The notes under the pieces: generated by a model
What the model was told of the DNA's origin: nothing
Databases searched by the model: none
What the model saw: the letters and a program-made list of their open reading frames with translations, nothing else
Translations under genes and position numbers: made by a program
Shown: positions 15,091-43,867 of the stretch, in pieces
How the letters are laid out: every line of letters begins with the position of its first letter
Position numbering within the stretch: the stretch's first letter is position 1
Source of the DNA: Folioceros fuciformis
Lineage: Eukaryota
Reading direction: 5' to 3'
Assembly (NCBI GenBank): GCA_049999805.1
Contig: JBNGIO010002947.1
Span: forward strand, 1 to 48,438
Length of the DNA: 48,438 nucleotides

Positions 15091-18075
15091 TCATGGGCGG
15101 CCCTTACAACTGCAACAACCAGCCGAGAACCGATGCACACGGTACCCATCCCTCACAACAATGTCTCTCCGTTCAAGCCTTGACATGATCTCCGTGGAAC
15201 TGTGGCAGTCACTGCACATGCGTAGGTTCTTCGTTACCACCAACGGTGTCCCGCTCGGAGTGTTCAAGAGGCCAAAAGCCAGAGCTAGCTTCTCGGCGTG
15301 CCCACAAAGGGCATCTTCCTTTTCCTTCTCACACAGCGGCTTCAACACCAATTTTGTGTGAGGTTCGTGCCCGCCTTCCTCCTTCAGACGTGCATTCGTG
15401 CTCACCACCTTGAGCGCGATATCTTCTCTCCTTTCTCCCACCAGGAATCTATGTACCTGCTTCTTCACCTCAACGGTCGCCACTGCATGTTTCTTGTTAG
15501 CTCCTGCTACCAGTCTCCGTGTTTCGATCCTGTCTACATCCGTCCACCGACCTGCATCTGCATACGCATTGGCCATGAGCACATAGGCTGGAGACTCCTG
15601 GGGGTCCAGCCTAACGATGTTCTCAAAACACCATGTCGCCCTCTTCAAGTCCCCGTGACTTTTGCTGGCACTCAACAAAGACGTCAGTCCCACAACATTA
15701 CTCTGGTCCGAGCATGACAATAGCACCTGCTCTGCCTCGTCCAAATGGCCTGCACGCCCAAGAAGATCAATCATGCAGTTGTAATGATCAAGAGTAGGAC
15801 TAATGCCATGCTGTTCAGCCATGGAATCGAAGTGCTTGCGACCCTCGTGGACCAGTCCCCCATGGCTGCATGCTACCAAAACGCAAGTAAAGGTAGCATC
15901 ATTAGGCTGAACACCGGCAACCAACATCTCCTCGAAACAAGCCAGTGCCTTGTGACCTTCGTCACACGTACCATATCCCGATATCAGGGCGGTCCATGTC
16001 ACCACGTTCTTCGTGCTCATCCCGTCAAAAACCTGGCGTGCATCTTTCAATTCACCACACTTTGCATACATGTCCACAAGGCAAGTGCCCAACACTACGT
16101 CATCCACCAGTCCTCTTTCCACAATCTGTGAGTGCAACTGCCTGCCCTTCTGTACGGCACCAGTGCTCGCACAGGCCTTCAGAAGGCAAGCGAAAGTGAC
16201 ATGATCAGCCAGGATGAGGCCCGCATCCTCCATTTGGCCATACAGAACAAGCCCCTCTTGGCTCAGTCCTTGCTGTGCATATCCGGCAATCAGGGCAGTC
16301 CACGTTACCACATTCTTCGTGGCCAAGCCATCAAAAACATGGCGTGCATCTTCCAGTTCACCACACTTTGCGTACATGTCCACCAGGCAGGTGCCCAACA
16401 CGACGTCATCCAGCCGACCCCCTTTCACAATCTGAGAGTGCAGCTGCCGGCCCTTCTGTATGGCACCAGTTCTCGCACAGGCCTTCAGAAGACAAGCGAA
16501 AGTAACATCGTCACCCAAAATGAGGCCCGCCTCCTCCATTTGTCCGTAAATGACAAGCGCCTCATGGCCGAGTCCTTGCTGTGCATACGCAGCTATCAGG
16601 GTATTCCATGTCACCACATCCTTTATCGCCAAGCTGTCAAACGCCTCGCGTGCATCTTCCAGCTGACCACATTTTGCATACATGTCCACCAGGCAGGTGC
16701 CCACCACTACGTTATCCAGCAGTCTTCTTTCGATGATCAGTGTGTGCAGCTGCCTGCCCTTCTGCAGGGCACCAGTACTTCCACAGGCCCTCAGAAGGCA
16801 GGCAAAAGTAACATGGTTAGCCAAAATCCGGCCCTCCCCCTCCATTCGTCCGTAGACAACAAGTGCCTCATGTCCCAGACCTTGTTGGGAGTACCCAGCA
16901 ATCAGGGCATTCCATGTGACCACATTCTTCGTTGGCATGCCGTCAAAGACATTCTTTGCATCCTTCAGTTCTCCACATTTTGCATACATGTCCACAAGAC
17001 AGGTGCCAACAAACAAGTCGGGAAGAATGCCACTGCGCAACACATCACCATGCACTTCCGTTCCCGAGTCCAAGTCCACTGCAAACGCACAAGCCTGAAG
17101 CACAGCCACAAAGACGTGAGCATCCGCCTTCACTCCCGCCCTGCACATCTCATGGTACAGCTGTATAGCCACCTTAGGTTTCCCATGCTTAGCATACGCA
17201 GAGATGATGGCAGACCACATGAAGGAATTCGGTTTGCGAACCCTGGTGAACACATCCATGGCCTCCTCTAAACTACCCCCACATGCATACATGCGCAAAA
17301 AATGGTTCCCCAAATACGCATTCGACTCGTACCCAAGTTCGACGCTGAGACGATGAACTCGTCGCCCCACAACCAAATCCTTCTTGGCCGTGCACAGCTT
17401 CACCACAACATAAAACAGAGACTGACAAACGCCAGAATCCGTCCGGGCCAGAGCTTCGAGGGCTTCCACAGCCTCACGCAGCCTCCCCTGCTGACACAAC
17501 ATGCTCAAGGTTCCAGCCGTTACAACGCCCATTCGCAATCCTTGGCGCACACCAGGATCAGGCTCACGCACATAACTGGAGCCAGAAGGAGAAGCACCAC
17601 CACCCATCCCCAGATCCAAGGAAACTAACCGCTCATCAACCCAAGGTGGCTTAAACACGTTGTTCAACCACAGCACCTCGTCAGACCCCTTCCGCCGGAA
17701 ATCAGGAGAACGGGAGCTCCTCTTCTCGCGTCTGTTGTCCCACCACACAGTTGGGTCTAGGAAAAACCGTTGCCACAAGAGATCCTGCTCCTGGCCACGA
17801 CCATCGCCGGCCACCCCTTCCCCACCCACACATTTCCTGGGAATCGGAACTGCCGGGCTCCTCACGCTGCTGCACCTGGAGCCCTTGCTTGCAAGGGATT
17901 CACTCCCGGAGACGAGCCGAGCGGGAGCTCCTCGTGCAACCTCTGCACACACACCAGCTTCTTGGGTCCACAAAGGGTCCGGTTGCCACACTCCGGCCAT
18001 CACCACACCCCGCTTTCGGTCTCGGAAGACAAGTCTCACACGACACACAGACTGAGCCTGAATGCCCAGCAACAT
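15091..18075 (-). CDS. Intronless PLS-class PPR protein with E1/E2 and a DYW:KP/GRP-type deaminase-like domain (putative U-to-C editing factor), plus an N-terminal OSB-like PDF motif
   Basis: First in-frame ATG at 18075. Repeated P-L-S triplets, KKHAVATVEV in place of the PG box, GHAEKLA...CSDCH zinc ligands, C-terminus CSCKGRP. N-terminal WWDNRREKRSSRSPDFRRKGSDEVLWL motif. Confidence 0.93.
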   Translation of the reverse strand: MLLGIQAQSVCRVRLVFRDRKRGVVMAGVWQPDPLWTQEAGVCAEVARGAPARLVSGSESLASKGSRCSSVRSPAVPIPRKCVGGEGVAGDGRGQEQDLLWQRFFLDPTVWWDNRREKRSSRSPDFRRKGSDEVLWLNNVFKPPWVDERLVSLDLGMGGGASPSGSSYVREPDPGVRQGLRMGVVTAGTLSMLCQQGRLREAVEALEALARTDSGVCQSLFYVVVKLCTAKKDLVVGRRVHRLSVELGYESNAYLGNHFLRMYACGGSLEEAMDVFTRVRKPNSFMWSAIISAYAKHGKPKVAIQLYHEMCRAGVKADAHVFVAVLQACAFAVDLDSGTEVHGDVLRSGILPDLFVGTCLVDMYAKCGELKDAKNVFDGMPTKNVVTWNALIAGYSQQGLGHEALVVYGRMEGEGRILANHVTFACLLRACGSTGALQKGRQLHTLIIERRLLDNVVVGTCLVDMYAKCGQLEDAREAFDSLAIKDVVTWNTLIAAYAQQGLGHEALVIYGQMEEAGLILGDDVTFACLLKACARTGAIQKGRQLHSQIVKGGRLDDVVLGTCLVDMYAKCGELEDARHVFDGLATKNVVTWTALIAGYAQQGLSQEGLVLYGQMEDAGLILADHVTFACLLKACASTGAVQKGRQLHSQIVERGLVDDVVLGTCLVDMYAKCGELKDARQVFDGMSTKNVVTWTALISGYGTCDEGHKALACFEEMLVAGVQPNDATFTCVLVACSHGGLVHEGRKHFDSMAEQHGISPTLDHYNCMIDLLGRAGHLDEAEQVLLSCSDQSNVVGLTSLLSASKSHGDLKRATWCFENIVRLDPQESPAYVLMANAYADAGRWTDVDRIETRRLVAGANKKHAVATVEVKKQVHRFLVGERREDIALKVVSTNARLKEEGGHEPHTKLVLKPLCEKEKEDALCGHAEKLALAFGLLNTPSGTPLVVTKNLRMCSDCHSSTEIMSRLERRDIVVRDGYRVHRFSAGCCSCKGRP

Positions 18076-18841
18076 ACCGTCGTTTTCTACGCCTCCCGTA
18101 ACGGCGTGAAACAACCTATTCGAACCGACCTCCGTTATGTCAATGTCGATTCACGTTAACTGGTTGCTGAGTACGGTTTGAATCGATTTCGAAATGCGTT
18201 CAATCAAACCATCTAGGGAGTTAATAAGTCATCAAATTTCACATCGGGACCGAAGCGTGACACATAGAGATTAAGTGCATCATGGTATTTTCTATGATTA
18301 TTTTCTATGATTGAAAAAGGGATCGAAAGTCCTATCTACTCCAAAGATTGGAGAAACAAGATTATTAGGGCCAAAGGAAAAAAAAGTACTCGCCCATGCG
18401 AATATTATTTTCAAAAACTACCTACTTATTCGTCCCTGCGAATATCATTTTCAAAAACTACTTGCTGCTTCCAAACTATCATGATGTGGAATAACAAGAG
18501 GCCTACCTACCACCCGTGCCGAAGAAGTCGCTTGACCTGTGTTTGTAGCTATTCTAAAAATTGAATTGGCCAATGCTTGTTGCAAAGCAATGGATACATT
18601 GTCAAAAGAAGGCCACCACAGAGGAAAGAAGGAGAACACCATTCTTATTGCTCTGATAAATCTTGGCGCACTCCTTGATAAACCTTGAAAAGTCCTTGCC
18701 CATAGCTAGTGCATCATGTACTCGAGAATTCATTAGCATCACTTAATCACCAAACTTCAACTCCAACATATTCCAAGACTGGGAGTCCTGAATACAAATC
18801 TCAAAAGCATCCTAGAAGAAAATTTTGAATATGATCATGTA

Positions 18842-35387: not shown

Positions 35388-38300
35388 TCAGGCCTCAGGC
35401 CCCTGGCTGCAGGCTAAAGAAGGAATTGAGCTTGCACACTCATCTGGTACGCTGCATGACCGGAATCTTCAACTGATTTCACGCATTATTGCATTCCAGA
35501 TGATTCCTCAAAATTGGCCGGCGAGGCTTTAAAATTAATTCCTAGTCGACACAACACAAAAATTAGGCCTTCCACAAATGGTAAAAACCCCATGGCTGAA
35601 ATACGTGCATCGCGCTTTATCCCGCAGACACGACAGGAGACATACCTATTGTCAGGGGATGAAGACTTTGAGCTGGCCCCAGCGGCAAGAACATTCTGCA
35701 GCTGCGCCACCTGCCGCCATGATAGGTTAACAGACCAAACTACTATTTTTTCTGCCATCAAGAGCAAGAAGGCGCACACGCCGAACAAAAGATCACTTAC
35801 AAGCTGCTGCAACTCTTCCACCTTCCCGTCACTCTCCCGTTTCTGCTCCAGTGCACGAGCTATGGCTGCTTCCATCCACCTGTTCTCCGCTTCGAGCTGT
35901 CATGTCACAATCCAAACATCAGCACTGCAGCAAACGAAAGAGACAAAATAGTTTGACAAAGAGTTAACGTATGCATCCTGGAACCTGTTCAGCAGCAGCA
36001 GCCCGCTGCCTCTCCGCCTCCAGCTGCTGCTTCAGACATGCTTGTTCCTACAGAGAGAAGCCCAGCACCGACTCATCTGTCAGTACACGAGACAGGACAT
36101 TTGACATCTGCGGTTTACTCAGACAGTGGTACCTTCCGCACACGCTCTAGCCATCCTGCATCAACAAGCCACTTTTGTTGCCTTCGACGAGGTGGACCCA
36201 CAGCAGTGAGAGACATGGGCATGCTTCTTTGCTCTGGGATAAAACTATCCTCTCCAGTCCCATGTCTCGTCAGCCAGGTGTTACTTGTGCTAGTAACACT
36301 GAAAGATCAACGAGAAGACAGTCAGACCACAACCTGAGCTAATTCGAGGAGTACAAGGTCCTATAATCAGAGGAAAAGAGTTCTTTTCGGAGAATGTTTG
36401 AACAGAATATTCGGAGCTCATGATATCATCGACTGCAAATCCAATCAGGGAACAGAAAAGAAACCTGCTGGCGGCATCCGTGTCCATGAACCTGCTGAGC
36501 TGTTCACTGGGACCTGCTAACCATCCAGAGTCATGCTGAGAGGAGGATAGGCCGTTGGTTGTAAGCAGCATCGGCTTCTCCGAGGGCTTCGACACATACA
36601 TTCCCATGTTCAGGGAACCTCTCGCTCGCTTGCGGAAATTGTCAAAACCACCATCCAGCCTTGAGGAGGTAGGAGATAGGAAGCTCCCATCTTGCAAGGG
36701 TGATTGAAATGGTGGCTGGCCCCTCGCTTCCGGAGATATTCTTGTGATATCTTTCTCCATCTGGAGCAACGCGGCATCGACCTCTGCGTTTCGTGTCGCC
36801 TTCTCCATCTCCAGCGCTCTCACGGCTGCTTGAGCAGCTTCACACTGCTTCTCGGATTCTGCAACTCTTAACTTCAGGGTTCTAATGAAGGTATCAACCT
36901 CTTCCAAATGAGAGGCATGAACCTTTACCATCTCACCGGTCCTCCCTACTGACAGATCAGGAGCTCGGTCTTTGGTGTCATGATTTTTAGACCACTCAAG
37001 CTCTCTCACAGTCCCTTGAAGTGCTGATATGGCGTTGGCTGACTCTTCCCTCTCTGCCACAAGTAGTCTCATGAGCTCGTTTTTCTCATTGATAAGCTCT
37101 TGTTCTTTCCGCTGAAGTTCTATCGTCCTTTGTCTGTCCACTTCCCTGCGCTCCTCCTGTAAATTTGCAGCTTCTTGCTGCTCCTGAGCCCAAGCTTTCT
37201 CCCGTCTTTCCCACTCTGCTTCTCTTTCAACCCTGGCCTGGACCAGTGCACTTTCCTTCAAACTCAACTCCTCTCGAAGACATTCGATAGCATGCATTGC
37301 AGCAGATATCTGTCGATCGAAATTAGCAACTCTATCCACAGCCAATTGCCATTCTTTGTCCCGTCGGTCGACATGAGCTTTATTCTCACTGTAATCTAAC
37401 CAGAGAGTCTCGAGATCCGGCTTCATAAGACCTGCCTCTGCATTACCAGGTGCATTCCTGAAATCCTCCTTATGGCTTCGAATGCTCTCTCGCAGTAAGG
37501 TAATCTCACTTTTGAGCTCCTCCACCGTCTGTTGGTGCTGCTTCTTCTCCCTCTCCCTATCGTCAAAGAGGAGGGACTTCTCATGCATGAGGGTAGAGAT
37601 GGCTTTTGCCATTTTCAGCTCCTCTACCTTGGCCGTCTCTATCCATCTTCTCTTCTCCTGTTCCAACTGCGCTTCTTTCCTCATTGCTGCCTCTTCAAAC
37701 CGAACAAATTCCTGGCTCTTCTGCTCCAGCACTGCTCGAGTGGCCTCCAGTTGCTGCATTAAGGTCTCTGTCTGCTTCTCCCATGTCAGCTCTTTCTCCT
37801 TCATCTCTTGCTTCATTCTGTTCTGAGAAGCGATGCTCATTTCTATCTCCTGCTCTTTCACTTTTTTCTCTCTCTCTACTTCCCTGTCTAACATCCGGAC
37901 CTCTTCCCTAAATTTGTGTAAGCCAAGCTCCATCTCATGTTCTCTAAAATCCAGCTGTGACTCAAGCTTCTTGACTTCCAAATCCTTCATGTTAAGAGCT
38001 TCTTCCATCTGCTTTCTTTCGAACTCCATTTGGACCTCATATTCCTTCATTTCTGCTTTCAGGCTCTCCGCCTGCTGCTCCAACAATTGCTTTTCCTGCA
38101 TCAGCTGCTCAGCTCCTGACCTCATGTTTAATCTCTCTTTCTCAAACCTCTCCTCCTTAGAACGAACCTCCCTAGTCGTCCTTCGAATTTCGGCCTCCAT
38201 TTCAATGGCAAGTCTCTCCACATCTATGAAATTTTCGGAGGAGCTCTCATCTTGCCTCCTAAGAGCTGCTACATCAATCGACGAACTCACTTCACTGCTG

Positions 38301-40570
38301 TTGCAAGATTCGTCGTGGTCGTCCAACCACTGACTTGCTCTTCGAGCCCGTTGCATGCCTTTCCTACTGGCTACCATCTGCTGCTTCATGTCCTCCATAC
38401 GCTGCCTATTCGCTTCCAAAGTTTCCAAAAGCCTTTTATGCTCAGATTTTAAGGAGGCTACCTCTGCGTCCCTTTCTTCTAACGCAGACGACCACTTCTC
38501 GACCTGCTCTTCGACCCACTGCTCTCTTTCTCTGACCATTGCCTCCCATCCATGTTTTTCATTCACCCATTTCTGCTTCCAACTTTCCATTTCCTGCTCC
38601 CACTTCCTCGTTTCCTGAGAAATGACGGCCTCTCTATTGCTGTACTTCAGCTCCAGATCCTCTGACTTGGCTTCCAGATTGCTCAGTTTTGCGGTTAGTG
38701 TCCTTTCTCTGTCGTGCCACATTTCTTCTATCTCCCTTTCTCTGTCTCTTGCCTTTTCAACAAGCATGTTCAATTTGACCTCCAGATTATCTCTCTCCGC
38801 TTCAACTCGCACACGATCGGCCCTCAACTGAGTGAGCTGAGCCACAACCAAATCGTGGAACTCTGCGTCTCCGTCAGCAACAGGAATAACTTCCACGACT
38901 CCATTTGCCACCATCACATTAGGGTCTTCAAGTAGCTCCCGGACTCGTTGTGTGATGATTTGGCTCCCTTCCACAGATGAAGCCCACTGTGCAACCTCCC
39001 CTAATGTTGTTGCTACTTTCACCACAAAGCCCTCCAATTGCCTCAACTTTTCGCTGTGGCTCCTACTCTCAGCTCTCCAAAGGCCCAGAGTTCTATCCAT
39101 TTCAAGACGAGATTCCTTACGGCGTTCTCTCTCGGACGTGAGTGCAGCTTCGCTGTCTCTAAGCAAAACAGAGATCCTACCAGCCTCTTTCTCAAGAGCA
39201 ATCACGCGGTGGTCATTCTGCTTGTCCTTCTCTCGCCACTTTCTCCTTTCCTGCTGGAACCGTTCCTCCGATGCTTCCTTTGCACTGGTCACCTCCTCAA
39301 GAGACTTCCTCTGCCGCTCTGTTCTCTCGTCTGCTTCCTTGAGGAGGTCTTCGAAAGCTATGAACAAGTCTTTACTTGGACTATCCAGCTGCTTCTGCAG
39401 CCCGTCATTTGACGTGGACTCCTGCCCTACGCCAATTGCACTGAAGCCCTTCTTCATGGCATCCTTATGTCTTGTGAAGTCCTCTTCACCTTCTCTCAGC
39501 TCTACAAGCATTCCTCGGATGACCTCGTCCATCTCATCTTGCTTCTTCTGCAGTGCATACTCCTTCTCAGCATGTGCAATGCTGAGTTCCTCCTCTAGCC
39601 TCCTCACTTTGCTTTTCAGCACCATTATCTCCTCTTCGAACTGGACCTCCCTCCGTTCAATTTCCCACTCCCTCTCCTGTCTCTGCATTTCCATCACTTC
39701 CTCATCAGCTTTCATTCTCAGCAGTAATTCCTCCATTGCAGCTTCCAGCTCGACTTCCTCTTCTACTTTCTCTACAATGTGCTCCATTCTTTCCATGCTG
39801 AGTCTTCTCTCAACTGCCTGCTCTCTTCCAGCAAGTATTTTCAATTGCTCGCACAGAAGTTTGGAGAGCTTCATTTCATGCTTCCCATCTTCCCATGACT
39901 GCCCGAGAAAGAGTCTGGGCTTGGCTGAAGACCTGGGATAATCTTGTGGCCAGCCATGGTCGGCGTCATCTTCAGCAAGCTCCCTGCCGTCCCCAAGAGC
40001 TTCTGCTAATTCTCCTTTCAACTTCTGCAAATGGTGTGCCAGTGCCCTTGCCTTGATCAAGTTCACATCTTTTTTGACAGGATTCCTGCAAACAAGGGCA
40101 CGACAGGGTTTGCTCTGAATGCCTTCACGGTCTACCAGTGATTCATCGTCACTAAATGCGTTCTCTATCCGGAGAACGTCTTCATCAGCGATGTCCTTCT
40201 CAAGAGATCTGTATGCTTGCAGACCATGAGGCTTCCACGCTTCTAAAGAAGCAACCTTTCCTTCAGCAAGCTGTAAGGCACTTCCACAAGCGGCTTCGCT
40301 TAAGCAGTCAGGAGGTGCAGCGGTCCGATGATCATGTTCGCAAGAGTAACCACTCTCCACTACTCCTTTGGTGCGCTCCCGAGCGCAAATACTCATCGCA
40401 CTGCCACTATGCGACAAATCCTGCCTTTCGTCACAGTCTATGGAAGTCTGAAAATCTGATCCAAGTTGAGCACTGTCTTGAAATTTGGCCCCACCATCCT
40501 GTCCAGGTGAATCCAAGAAATCAATCTGTGAGCTCCACGGAAGACTTGAAGGAAAGATTAGAGGTACCAT
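35388..40570 (-). CDS. Very large coiled-coil protein (>1400 aa), family unrecognised; ends approximate
   Basis: Uninterrupted E/K/R/Q-rich heptad ORF of 1426 aa. Donor near 36465, followed by small exons (e.g. MEAAIARALEQKRESDGKVEELQQL, VAQLQNVLAAG). Possible extra 5' exons in 40600-41300. Confidence 0.75.
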
Positions 40571-42204: not shown

Positions 42205-43867
42205 TCAATCACTTCTCTGGATTTCTGGTTGTGTCAAAGAGTAGACTTCAAGCAGGTCGAGAAATACAGTTTCGTTGGGTTCCACTCTGTCCAGCCGCAT
42301 TCTGTTCAGAAGTCTGTCCACCTGCTGCATCTGGCCTGCCTTACCGTAGGCTTTCAGGATGGATCCGTAGTATTTGGGATCCGGGTAGAGGCCCATCTTG
42401 GGGGCCCGCTGGAGCAGCATTTCAGCTCTGTGGAAGCAGCCATGGTGGCAGTAGCCCTCCATCATGGCTGTGAAGGTGGAGGGCATGAGCTTCACCTTCG
42501 CCTGGACCATGTCCTGCAAGCATTCCTCCATTCTGCCCACGTCCCCAGCCTGGCCGTGTGCCCGGATCCTGATCTCGTAAGACACGAAGGTTGGGGTGAG
42601 ACCTCGTGCCGACATGTCGGAGAAAGTAGACTCCATCTTGTCCAGCATGCCAGCCCTGCCGTAGTTGCTCATCATGGAGTGGAAGGTGGCGAGGTCTGGA
42701 GGTATCTTCCTGGCAGCCGTCATGGTGTTGTAGACTCTGTCCATCTTGTCCCAGGCTCCGGCTTTGCCGTAGACGTCGATGAGGATGTTGAAGGTAATGA
42801 GACCCGGCTTGCAGAACTCGGCTTCCATGACGGAAATCATGTTCTCCATCTGCGCCAGGTGCCCTGCTTTGCCATACGCGTCCAGGATGCCGTTGAAGGT
42901 GTACAGGTCTGGGGCCAGGCCTTCCTTCCGGAGCTCCACAAAGAGTGCATTCACCACGTCGAACTCGCCTGCCAGACCACATGCCCTGATCAAGGTATTG
43001 TAGGTCACGATATTGGGCTGGGCCTGGGACCTCTCTTTCATATCCTCCAGAAACCTGAGCCCCGTCTCCCACGCCCTGGGGTTCGTGGGATTCCTCACCT
43101 GCAACGCAACAAGTGCAGCGAGAGCACCAGCAGCAGCATCAGCGTGCGGTGGCAAACTTCACCGTCATCCATAAAGCATAAGTTTCCTTCTCCCCTACTC
43201 TGCTTCAACTTCATCTACTTCTGCCTCTTCCCTGTTCTTCTCTGCTCTGCTCTGCTCTCACCAACCTGGGACGAAATGACAGCATTGTAGGCAGAAGTGT
43301 CAGGCTCCACACCATTTCGCCTCATCTCCACGAACAGCCACTTTGCCAGCTTCACCTTCTTGGCTTTCCCCATGATGGAGATCAACTTGGAGTAGAAACC
43401 AAGATTATGCCTATACCATCCCTGCATCTGAATCCACCGAAACACCTGCAGCAAAAACAGAAAGCCACAACTCATCCTCATGCAGTCCACGAACCCATCC
43501 CACACAAACACAGAGAACACACCTCAAGGGAAACCTGCCATTCATGCCTGTGCCCCAAGGCCTCCAGCACCTGGAACCAGTGTGGATGCCTGAGATACAG
43601 GCCTCTGCTGTCCATGACTCTCTCCACCACAGCTCCTTCCGCAGTCAGGGCCCGGACCAGCCCCTCTCGGGCATGTGACGTCAGACTCTCCGTCTGCTCA
43701 TCCTTCTTCCTCCTGCTCCTGACAACAACCACAGACACACCGCCTTCTGGAACCTTCATCCCCCGCCCGCAAGAAAGTGATGGCAGTCGGCCGGGAGCGG
43801 CAGCACAAGATGACAATGATTCCAGGGGCCGCCATCCTTGGTCAGGGATGATGCGACTCGGGCTCAT
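42205..43867 (-). CDS. PPR5: P-class chloroplast PPR protein, PPR5/EMB2453 (At4g39620)-like (3 exons)
   Basis: Exons 43867-43523, 43445-43266, 43098-42205. LEVFRWIQMQGWY...YSKLISIMGK....LAKWLFVEMRRNGVEPDTSAYNAVI...QPNIVTYNTLIRA...PDLYTFNGILDAYGK...ITFNILIDVYGK matches recalled At4g39620. Confidence 0.8.

Follow-up and report, generated by a model that had tools for sequence, protein, structure and literature searches.

A PDF domain of the OSB type in a putative PPR RNA-editing factor of Folioceros fuciformis, and PDF-PPR proteins in other land plants

OSB proteins (Arabidopsis OSB1-OSB4 and their orthologues) are organellar ssDNA-binding proteins that combine an SSB-like OB fold with one to five C-terminal PDF motifs. 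In the window analysed here, a stretch of 48,438 nucleotides of Folioceros fuciformis DNA, a peptide resembling such a motif precedes a PPR array and a DYW deaminase domain, and the locus raises the question of whether this peptide is truly a PDF domain, whether it belongs to the protein, and what an RNA-editing factor might gain from it. With no MORF helpers of the seed-plant kind, editing factors in hornworts, lycophytes and ferns serve between hundreds and thousands of sites, and the question touches on how such MORF-less editors gain enough affinity, and on how natural U-to-C editors work.

The reading frame and its parts

The gene lies on the minus strand at 15091..18075, as an intronless coding sequence of 994 amino acids plus stop, delimited from the ORF list, its translation and Pfam. 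A single stop-free frame joins the PDF motif to the PPR array, so the sequence-only reading was right to place the motif in one uninterrupted frame with the PLS-class PPR, E and DYW regions; likewise, the 52-residue peptide that it quoted is returned exactly by minus-strand translation of 17626-17781, as LLWQRFFLDPTVWWDNRREKRSSRSPDFRRKGSDEVLWLNNVFKPPWVDERL. From N- to C-terminus, the frame comprises a presequence-like end, the PDF domain, a linker, the PPR array, an E motif and a DYW domain of KP(GRP) type. An in-frame stop precedes the first ATG by 26 codons; Met1 (at 18075) and Met26 (at 18000) both lie upstream of the PDF motif, and the first methionine beyond it is residue 157. A look for sequencing runs of this DNA found none recorded as RNA. 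Contigs of run X1, which is RNA only by a tool's guess, match 17459-17658 and 17690-18036 with zero differences, and give no cover over 18148-18500; they are given no weight here on transcription or the 5' end.

Residues 1-98 (17782..18075, minus strand) are presumed from the translation to form an organelle-targeting presequence. The PDF domain occupies residues 95-156 (17608..17793, minus strand), as bounded by the hmmsearch envelope, phmmer and BLASTP, with the 52-residue core at residues 99-150. No Pfam domain was matched in residues 1-190. A Gly/Ser/Pro-rich linker (about residues 157-183; 17527..17607, minus strand) is marked out by its sequence, by pLDDT values below 50 at residues 158-165 of an AlphaFold2 model, and by BLASTP, in which similarity to the PPR regions of relatives starts at residue 184. 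There follows a PLS-class PPR array (about residues 184-806; 15658..17526, minus strand), recognized by the Pfam models PPR (10 stretches), PPR_1, PPR_2 and PPR_3, well over their cut-offs. Within it, Tandem Repeats Finder reports a 306-nt repeat of 3.4 copies with 81% matches (15983..17011, no strand assigned), whose units correspond to 102-aa P-L-S triplets, visible as blocks in the translation, that are recent duplications. The E motif (residues 807-869; 15469..15657, minus strand) matches Pfam PF20431 with E=3.5e-10 and 40.4 bits, over a cut-off of 27.3. The DYW domain (residues 862-994; 15094..15492, minus strand) was delimited by Pfam and alignment; PF14432 (DYW_deaminase) matches residues 902-992 with E=7.6e-32, and HAE and CSDCH supply the zinc-binding signature HxE...CxxCH.

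Aligned with canonical DYW domains, this domain is 133 residues long, lacks the xHP triplet and ends in GRP; Lys949 and Met953 stand at positions 88 and 92 (numbered from K862), and Glu stands at the position of the PG-type K103. In the accessible text of PMC9478123 and PMC11845758, the KP/GRP class is defined by a length of 132-133 aa with no xHP, by Ala or Cys following the catalytic His, by Lys88 and Met92, by Glu where PG types have K103, and by GRP at the end, and the domain shares all of these with the hornwort GRP variant of DYW:KP that PMC9478123 (accessible text) credits to Gerke 2020 and Gutmann 2020. The earlier assignment to the DYW:GRP type therefore holds for HAE, the missing xHP, Met92, the Glu and the GRP end, but does not extend to the defining Lys-Pro pair, which is Lys-His here: the box reads KKHAVATVEV, against KKPAVAGIEV in P0072, a relative discussed below, and KK-PG-SWIEV in canonical proteins. 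The remainder of the box is KP-like, having A-A and neither the Gly nor the Trp. A second difference from the hornwort variant is the N-terminal PDF domain, which goes unmentioned in the accessible text of either source. Designer KP2 and KP3 proteins edit U to C in E. coli (PMC9478123, accessible text); such activity has been shown for designer consensus proteins only, and that of natural KP proteins is not established (PMC11845758, accessible text). By its DYW type, the window protein is a candidate U-to-C editor. Overall, the gene product is, as judged from sequence, a putative PLS-E-DYW:KP(GRP) PPR RNA-editing factor with one complete PDF domain.

The PDF domain and its relation to OSB proteins

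Exhaustive search confirmed that the motif and the PDF repeats of OSB proteins are true homologues. When the 76-aa stretch of residues 90-165 was compared by phmmer with 1.84 billion protein representatives, 569 proteins matched at E<=1e-3, 123 at <=1e-10 and 16 at <=1e-30, values that place the resemblance far beyond chance. Source-named matches include 'protein OSB1, mitochondrial-like' of Populus nigra (P0030), 'organellar single-stranded DNA binding protein 3' of Euphorbia peplus (P0046) and 'OSB1, mitochondrial-like' of Drosera capensis (P0078). By BLASTP, the 52 residues are 51% identical to P0030 over 51 aa (E=1e-15) and also match its second repeat (E=1e-12), and three repeats of a 440-aa Arabidopsis thaliana protein (P0254) match with 37%, 38% and 30% identity. 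An hmmsearch with a PDF profile scores the envelope 95-156 at 95 bits. A word-indexed search with residues 90-165, among proteins of similar and shorter length, returned no match, a blank that reflects limited sensitivity, since exhaustive phmmer gave its 569.

Conservation by column was compared between 60 PPR-attached and 92 OB-attached PDF motifs. Fifteen columns reach a conservation of roughly 0.9 or higher in both sets (W7, P14, W17, D19, R21, K24, P30, D31, F32, K35, L41, W42, P49, W51 and V52), which argues for the same biochemical constraint in both settings, and every one of them is present in the window's copy. At column 34, 90% of the PPR-attached motifs and 80% of the OB-attached ones have His, but the window's copy has Arg and reads FRRK against the usual FKHK; this substitution counts against a grip on RNA or ssDNA of the kind considered below.

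Likeness to OSB proteins extends to the signature of about 50 residues (about 30-51% identity to individual repeats), to the conserved core columns, and presumably to an organellar location. The protein nevertheless differs from them in having no OB fold: Pfam SSB and OB models find nothing in the 994 residues even at E<=1, and membership of the OSB family was rejected on this ground. Whereas OSB proteins carry PDF at the C-terminus, the motif here, at residues 99-150 of 994, precedes all other domains, with an RNA-binding PPR array and then a deaminase downstream of it. Conversely, a jackhmmer profile built from the OB region of the Populus OSB1-like protein collected 139 proteins, 136 with PDF and 0 with PPRs. 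The window protein shares a domain with the OSB family and is not a member of it.

The AlphaFold2 model of the PDF domain (mean pLDDT 80.8) predicts a helix, three short strands and a helix. By sequence, the PDB holds no relative of the PDF stretch (best E=1.7), and a Foldseek comparison of the model with the PDB gave nothing at E<=0.001; VIA-align against 48,161 chains reached a best Z of 4.5, in a range that the tool classes as common, and the ESM Atlas yielded no usable match to residues 85-165. As modelled, the domain can be assigned to no known fold, which does not imply that its fold is novel. A homodimer prediction for the 76-residue stretch, made with no alignment, scored 0.01 against a mark of 0.32, which speaks neither for nor against a dimer.

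PDF-PPR proteins among land plants

The window protein, with PDF at 95-156 and PPRs from 184 in one ORF, belongs to a recurrent architecture, in which one to three N-terminal PDF domains stand ahead of a PLS array. Among the best 150 of the 569 phmmer matches, 17 representatives carry a PPR region after the PDF motif, and eight of nine long matches are PPR proteins by Pfam; a PDF profile search returned 38 PPR-bearing proteins among its best 120. The architecture was found in Sphagnum (a moss), Diphasiastrum (a lycophyte) and the ferns Adiantum, Ceratopteris and Pteridium, with no seed plant among the source-named PDF+PPR proteins of these best 150 and best 120. Diphasiastrum complanatum is represented by many O6H91_* records, the genus accounting for at least 36 entries among the matches listed, and named entries include KAI5076972.1 of Adiantum, KAH7429238.1 and KAH7415344.1 of Ceratopteris and CAM6033764.1 of Sphagnum compactum. 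Four Pteridium aquilinum entries from EukProt (P0205, P0091, P0089 and P0094), whose contig names are transcript-style, join PDF and PPR in one ORF. In their sources, these proteins are labelled 'hypothetical protein' or plain PPR. All PDF copies lie N-terminal to the PPR array in 66 of the 67 PDF+PPR sequences compared, isoforms included, and a tree of PDF motifs places the window's copy in a supported group of 15 rows (SH-like 96) whose members include PPR-attached motifs of ferns.

These public proteins share the layout of the window protein, but in most of them the chain either finishes with the E motif or closes on a canonical DYW domain, of PG type rather than GRP, and those of lycophytes usually have two or three PDF domains rather than one. 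P0072 is the second GRP-type protein; its alignment with the window protein is collinear, starting at residue 53 and running across the motif and on into the PPRs. Among the recovered PDF+PPR proteins that end in DYW, these two are GRP and six, from Sphagnum and Diphasiastrum, are canonical HSE...DYW; most others are truncated or have no domain beyond the E motif. A special link between PDF and the KP/GRP, or U-to-C, proteins, which the sequence-only reading had invited, is not upheld by two GRP against six canonical DYW proteins, and KP/GRP specificity was rejected; E-class and canonical DYW proteins carry PDF too, so the fusion is not confined to U-to-C editors.

More broadly, PDF is by its distribution a mobile domain with at least three contexts (OB with PDF, PDF-only arrays, and PDF with PPR), not a mark of OSB proteins alone. 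Pfam holds no PDF model, so that Pfam-based surveys would miss PDF outside OSB proteins, and a survey such as PMC13393729, which in its accessible text requires OB and PDF together, would likewise miss the PDF-only and PDF+PPR contexts. The searchable literature, whose reach excludes Zaegel 2006, Gerke 2020 and Gutmann 2020, holds no report linking PDF motifs with PPR proteins.

Possible roles of the PDF domain in an editing factor

The sequence-only reading had suggested a tether to nucleoids or transcription bubbles, or non-specific nucleic-acid affinity in place of MORF/ORRM, and both are reasonable proposals. By analogy with the OSB repeats, the PDF domain most likely has an auxiliary role, gripping single-stranded nucleic acid without regard to sequence, be it RNA 5' of the PPR footprint or ssDNA of the nucleoid. 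A PPR array binds RNA with its N-terminal end towards the 5' side, so that a PDF domain placed at that end, with some 30 residues of flexible linker, would hold the transcript directly upstream of the footprint. We tentatively regard this as the best explanation: the domain would stay in the mature protein as a sequence-unspecific, auxiliary binder of single-stranded nucleic acid, and its grip on the transcript might raise RNA affinity or hold the editing site unfolded, in the manner of a built-in counterpart to the MORF-type helpers that do this work in trans in seed plants. In favour of such a binder, the PDF motif of AtOSB1 alone suffices for ssDNA binding (PMC6963530, accessible text). PPR proteins with other accessory domains, or with trans helpers such as MORF, ORRM and OZ, similarly place a second, less specific module beside the PPR specificity factor. 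However, the accessory domains of Physcomitrium PPR proteins (RRM, SMR, LAGLIDADG, NYN, CBS and SAP) belong to other families, PDF being missing from the list in the accessible text of PMC9459714, as it is from the fusions surveyed in that of PMC13386178; and MORF differs in acting in trans and in being limited, by its genes, to seed plants (PMC13386178, accessible text).

The nature of the ligand is where a DNA-centred alternative gains weight. According to the accessible text of a review (PMC4166229), AtOSB1 and AtOSB2 prefer ssDNA over dsDNA or RNA, which favours DNA rather than RNA as the ligand and counts against the RNA grip; ssDNA binding is, moreover, the only activity reported for PDF motifs in the accessible text of PMC6963530, and the core residues are identical to those of OB-attached motifs. 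The domain might on these grounds tether the editing factor to the nucleoid, anchoring it at transcription bubbles, R-loops or replication intermediates and thus coupling editing to transcription. We consider this somewhat unlikely, since a domain that did no more than tether could lie at either terminus of the protein, whereas the fixed position of PDF in those 66 of 67 sequences, strictly ahead of the PPR array and on a short linker, fits action in cis on the bound RNA.

Two further explanations dispense with nucleic-acid binding by the domain. AtOSB2 is described as a tetramer (PMC6963530, accessible text) and PDF copy number varies from one to three, like that of scaffolding repeats, so the domain might have been re-used for oligomerisation, or for docking to OSB, Whirly, RNA polymerase or other editing factors; this is quite improbable, as the conserved columns are the aromatic and basic ones common to ssDNA-binding OSB repeats, and no result in this analysis indicates a partner. 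Highly improbable, in our view, is a PDF domain that lies outside the working protein, through a downstream start at Met157, loss with the transit peptide, or decay as a relic in this gene. The His-to-Arg change at the 90%-conserved column 34 would suit a relic; every other core column is nevertheless intact, two in-frame ATGs lie upstream with no stop from there to the PPR array, P0072 and PDF-PPR proteins from distant plant groups preserve both the motif and the sequence on either side of it, and the X1 contigs, RNA or not as the tool's guess may prove, match the region without difference.

On a wider proposal, which we regard as rather unlikely as it stands, the PDF domain would be an RNA-editing helper built into the editors of non-seed land plants, an ancient OSB-derived fusion that became dispensable once MORF arose. 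An OSB-derived repeat binding ssDNA or ssRNA would have been fused to PLS-class PPR proteins long ago, and would have multiplied as the PPR families of hornworts, mosses, lycophytes and ferns expanded; it would lend a general grip on single strands, or couple editing to transcription on the nucleoid, and would have lost its necessity when MORF proteins arose in seed plants. A conserved extra module, and candidate nucleic-acid binder, on many such editors constitutes a hypothesis testable at the bench, and a possible add-on for engineered PPR base editors; were the wider proposal true, adding PDF domains to designer C-to-U and U-to-C editors could improve them.

A PDF domain in one frame with a PPR array

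Translation of the minus strand at 17626-17781 exactly reproduces the 52 residues which the sequence-only reading had taken for an OSB-type PDF motif, and motif and PPR array do, as it held, share one intronless frame: the motif occupies residues 99-150 of P0001, the product of a single 994-aa ORF (15091-18075, minus strand). An in-frame stop lies 26 codons 5' of the first ATG; the ATGs ahead of the motif encode residues 1 and 26, the frame is open from both, and the first Met past the motif is residue 157. Contigs of the sequencing run X1 end at 18036, 39 nt 3' of the first ATG (18075) and 5' of the second (18000). These ends bear no information on transcript ends and the RNA nature of X1 is a guess; if it is indeed RNA, translation of P0001 may in fact begin at Met26.

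Pfam identifies ten PPR stretches, an E motif (residues 807-869) and a DYW deaminase domain (residues 902-992) in P0001, and no family in residues 1-190, because the PDF motif is without a Pfam model. A Gly/Ser/Pro-rich stretch of ~30 residues lies C-terminal of the motif, and PPR-region similarity begins at residue 184. Within the array, a 306-nt unit is tandemly repeated (15983-17011; 3.4 copies, 81% matches); this is a recent duplication of whole 102-aa P-L-S triplets, and part of the RNA-recognition code of P0001 is therefore repetitive. The same repeat gives rise to a spurious long antisense ORF (16201-17271, plus strand). Elsewhere in the window, an unrelated second PPR frame of 278 aa (42205-43041, minus strand), in which no PDF motif was seen, carries P-type repeats and is probably a single exon from a longer gene; a 1426-aa open frame (36290-40570, minus strand), Glu/Lys/Arg-rich and heptad-like, would encode a long coiled-coil protein.

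The identity of the motif is borne out by OSB-named matches and by pairwise matches to OSB repeats. An exhaustive phmmer search of 1.84 billion representative proteins with P0001 residues 90-165 retrieved 569 proteins at E<=1e-3, of which 123 reach <=1e-10 and 16 reach <=1e-30, many with several matched stretches near the C-terminus. Among these matches, exact look-up identified 'protein OSB1, mitochondrial-like' as a Populus nigra protein, 'organellar single-stranded DNA binding protein 3' as one from Euphorbia peplus and 'OSB1, mitochondrial-like protein' as one from Drosera capensis; many OSB2, OSB3 or OSB4 names occur among the matches listed by a later profile search. The 52 residues share 51% identity over 51 positions with one Populus protein repeat (E=1e-15), and also match a second Populus protein repeat (E=1e-12) and, in Arabidopsis, three repeats within a protein of 440 aa. 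The SSB family was found in five of ten multi-repeat matches (Pfam, E<=0.1) and exceeded the curated cut-off in one of the five; such weak matches fit the OB-like domain of OSBs, described as 'poorly conserved' in a passage of PMC13393729.

Conserved core columns are identical between PPR-attached and OB-attached PDF motifs, which suggests that both are under the same constraint. The sole well-conserved column at which P0001 deviates is residue 133 (17677-17679), where Arg replaces the usual His (PDFRRK vs PDFKHK; His is present in 90% of the motifs attached to PPRs and in 80% of those attached to OB regions). P0072, a second GRP-type PDF-PPR protein, keeps this His, but has Arg for the Pro of 'PDF'. 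AlphaFold2, given A1, an alignment of 18 PPR-attached motifs, confidently predicts a small domain (mean pLDDT 80.8) with helices at 3-17 and 55-69, short strands at 22-24 and 37-39, and a disordered tail. Sequence comparison with the PDB yielded no relative of solved structure, and fold searches with this model (Foldseek, VIA-align) gave no convincing match.

Recurrence of the architecture

A PPR region lies C-terminal of the motif in 17 of the best 150 of the 569 phmmer representatives (BLASTP with residues 191-994, E<=1e-5). Eight of nine long matches are PPR proteins by Pfam, including P0072, which also has E and DYW domains and is collinear with P0001 from residue 53 across the PDF motif into the PPRs (46% identity); the ninth has a weak SSB match only. 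Named sources are Adiantum capillus-veneris, Ceratopteris richardii, Diphasiastrum complanatum, Sphagnum compactum and Pteridium aquilinum, the entries of which bear transcript-style contig names and so appear to be transcripts. A profile built from A1 matched 882 proteins at E<=1e-3 among 8,000 candidates scored, and 38 of the best 120 of these carry PPR families (Diphasiastrum contributes 36, Adiantum one, and Pteridium a single EukProt entry), five of them with DYW_deaminase as well.

In a census of 289 recovered proteins, which includes cluster isoforms and thus loci that are not independent, 273 bear PDF domains (697 in total): 67 together with PPRs, 136 with an OSB-type OB region, and 70 with neither, as short fragments or as arrays made of PDF alone, with at most 11 repeats. 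PDF, PPRs and OB region were combined in none of the 289. All PDF copies precede the PPR array in 66 of the 67 PDF-PPR sequences (one copy in 19, two in 36, three in 11), and the position is kept across distant plant groups. The exception, P0206 (Diphasiastrum complanatum, 1362 aa), with an additional PDF pair in the middle of the protein, resembles a merger of two neighbor genes, as do the public models P0042 (Striga hermonthica) and P0069 (Coptis chinensis), the latter a kinesin motor and PDF in one gene model; architecture counts from annotated proteomes call for comparison with transcripts. Proteins with four to 11 PDF copies and neither OB nor PPRs (P0003, P0009, P0010, P0013, P0017, P0230) constitute a third context for the domain. 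As P0017 derives from a EukProt dinoflagellate data set (Cladocopium sp.) and P0230 from the volvocine green alga Gonium pectorale, the taxonomic range of PDF perhaps extends beyond land plants and streptophyte algae, unless these sequences are contaminants.

For a FastTree phylogeny of PDF motif rows (59 columns, most forks unresolved), rows below 60 bits, partial rows and isoforms P0152-P0197 were left out, and the remaining 258 were thinned to pairwise identity <80%, giving 193 (60 PPR, 92 OB, 41 neither). The PPR label requires 12 changes, whereas shuffled labels average 51.3 and are as low in 0 of 500 shuffles, and PPR versus OB labels alone require four. A single subtree of 78 leaves (SH-like support 91) contains all 60 PPR-attached rows, its other members being 13 fragments and five OB rows; the P0001 motif adjoins that of P0072 within a supported set of 15 rows (96) with fern PPR-attached motifs. 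This pattern fits, and given the short columns and relatedness does not prove, one or a few old fusions followed by spread with the PPR family.

The deaminase domain and U-to-C editing

Alignment of the last 150 residues of P0001 with those of canonical DYW proteins shows these differences: KKHAVATVEV in place of KK-PG-SWIEV in the N-terminal box, no xHP triplet, HAE for HSE in the catalytic triplet, RMC for RVC or RIC ahead of the first zinc Cys, Glu for Lys at the PG-type K103 position, and a terminal GRP for DYW. With K862 as position 1, the domain comprises 133 residues, and K949 and M953 take positions 88 and 92, in agreement with the numbering used for DYW:KP. Since these features match those by which sections of PMC9478123 and PMC11845758 define DYW:KP and the GRP variant of hornworts, P0001 is taken as a GRP-variant DYW:KP protein; every other feature is present, whereas the name-giving Lys-Pro is Lys-His (residue 863; 15484-15486), and P0072 keeps the Lys-Pro pair. 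Passages of the same papers describe GRP proteins as a hornwort group, and the window is therefore probably of hornwort origin; designer GRP consensus proteins edit U to C in E. coli (PMC9478123, in part), and natural KP proteins are described in PMC11845758 as being of unknown activity.

Motif, PPRs, E motif and GRP end are thus all found in the architecture originally proposed, PDF + PLS-PPR + E + DYW:GRP. The fusion extends beyond U-to-C editors: one Sphagnum and five Diphasiastrum PDF proteins end HSE...DYW (PG type), the majority of fern and lycophyte members end after the E motif, and P0001 and P0072 are the only GRP-type proteins among those recovered.

Possible roles of the PDF domain

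The PDF domain keeps its core residues and its fixed place ahead of the PPR array in a recurrent architecture, always on a short flexible linker, and in P0001 would bind single-stranded nucleic acid in an auxiliary capacity. In structures of PPR-RNA complexes, the N-terminal end of the array points toward the 5' side of the RNA. Position, linker and the 5'-facing end of the array together lead us to favor, tentatively, a grip in cis on the RNA immediately 5' of the PPR footprint. According to excerpts of PMC6963530, the PDF motif of AtOSB1 alone suffices for ssDNA binding, and an excerpt of PMC4166229 reports that AtOSB1 and AtOSB2 prefer ssDNA over dsDNA or RNA; a tether to nucleoids or ssDNA, though rather unlikely, therefore ranks close behind the grip in cis. 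A protein-interaction role appears improbable. That the motif is decaying, or excluded from the mature protein, seems more doubtful still.

On accessory factors, MORF proteins are confined to seed plants, according to part of PMC13386178, and a simpler editing complex is thought to serve mosses (PMC9459714). In the literature covered, we found nothing relevant joining PDF motifs or OSB to PPR proteins, and earlier mention is possible. A 2026 survey of editing-factor domain fusions treats PPR, MORF, RRM and RanBP2 zinc-finger domains, and nowhere contains the terms 'OSB', 'ssDNA' or 'single-stranded' (PMC13386178); extra domains of Physcomitrium PPR proteins are RRM, LAGLIDADG, SMR, NYN, CBS and SAP (PMC9459714); and a 2026 paper on OSB evolution, by its own account in one section, restricted its set to proteins in which OB and PDF domains occur together (PMC13393729). 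PDF-PPR proteins are present in public databases, labelled 'hypothetical' or as plain PPR proteins.
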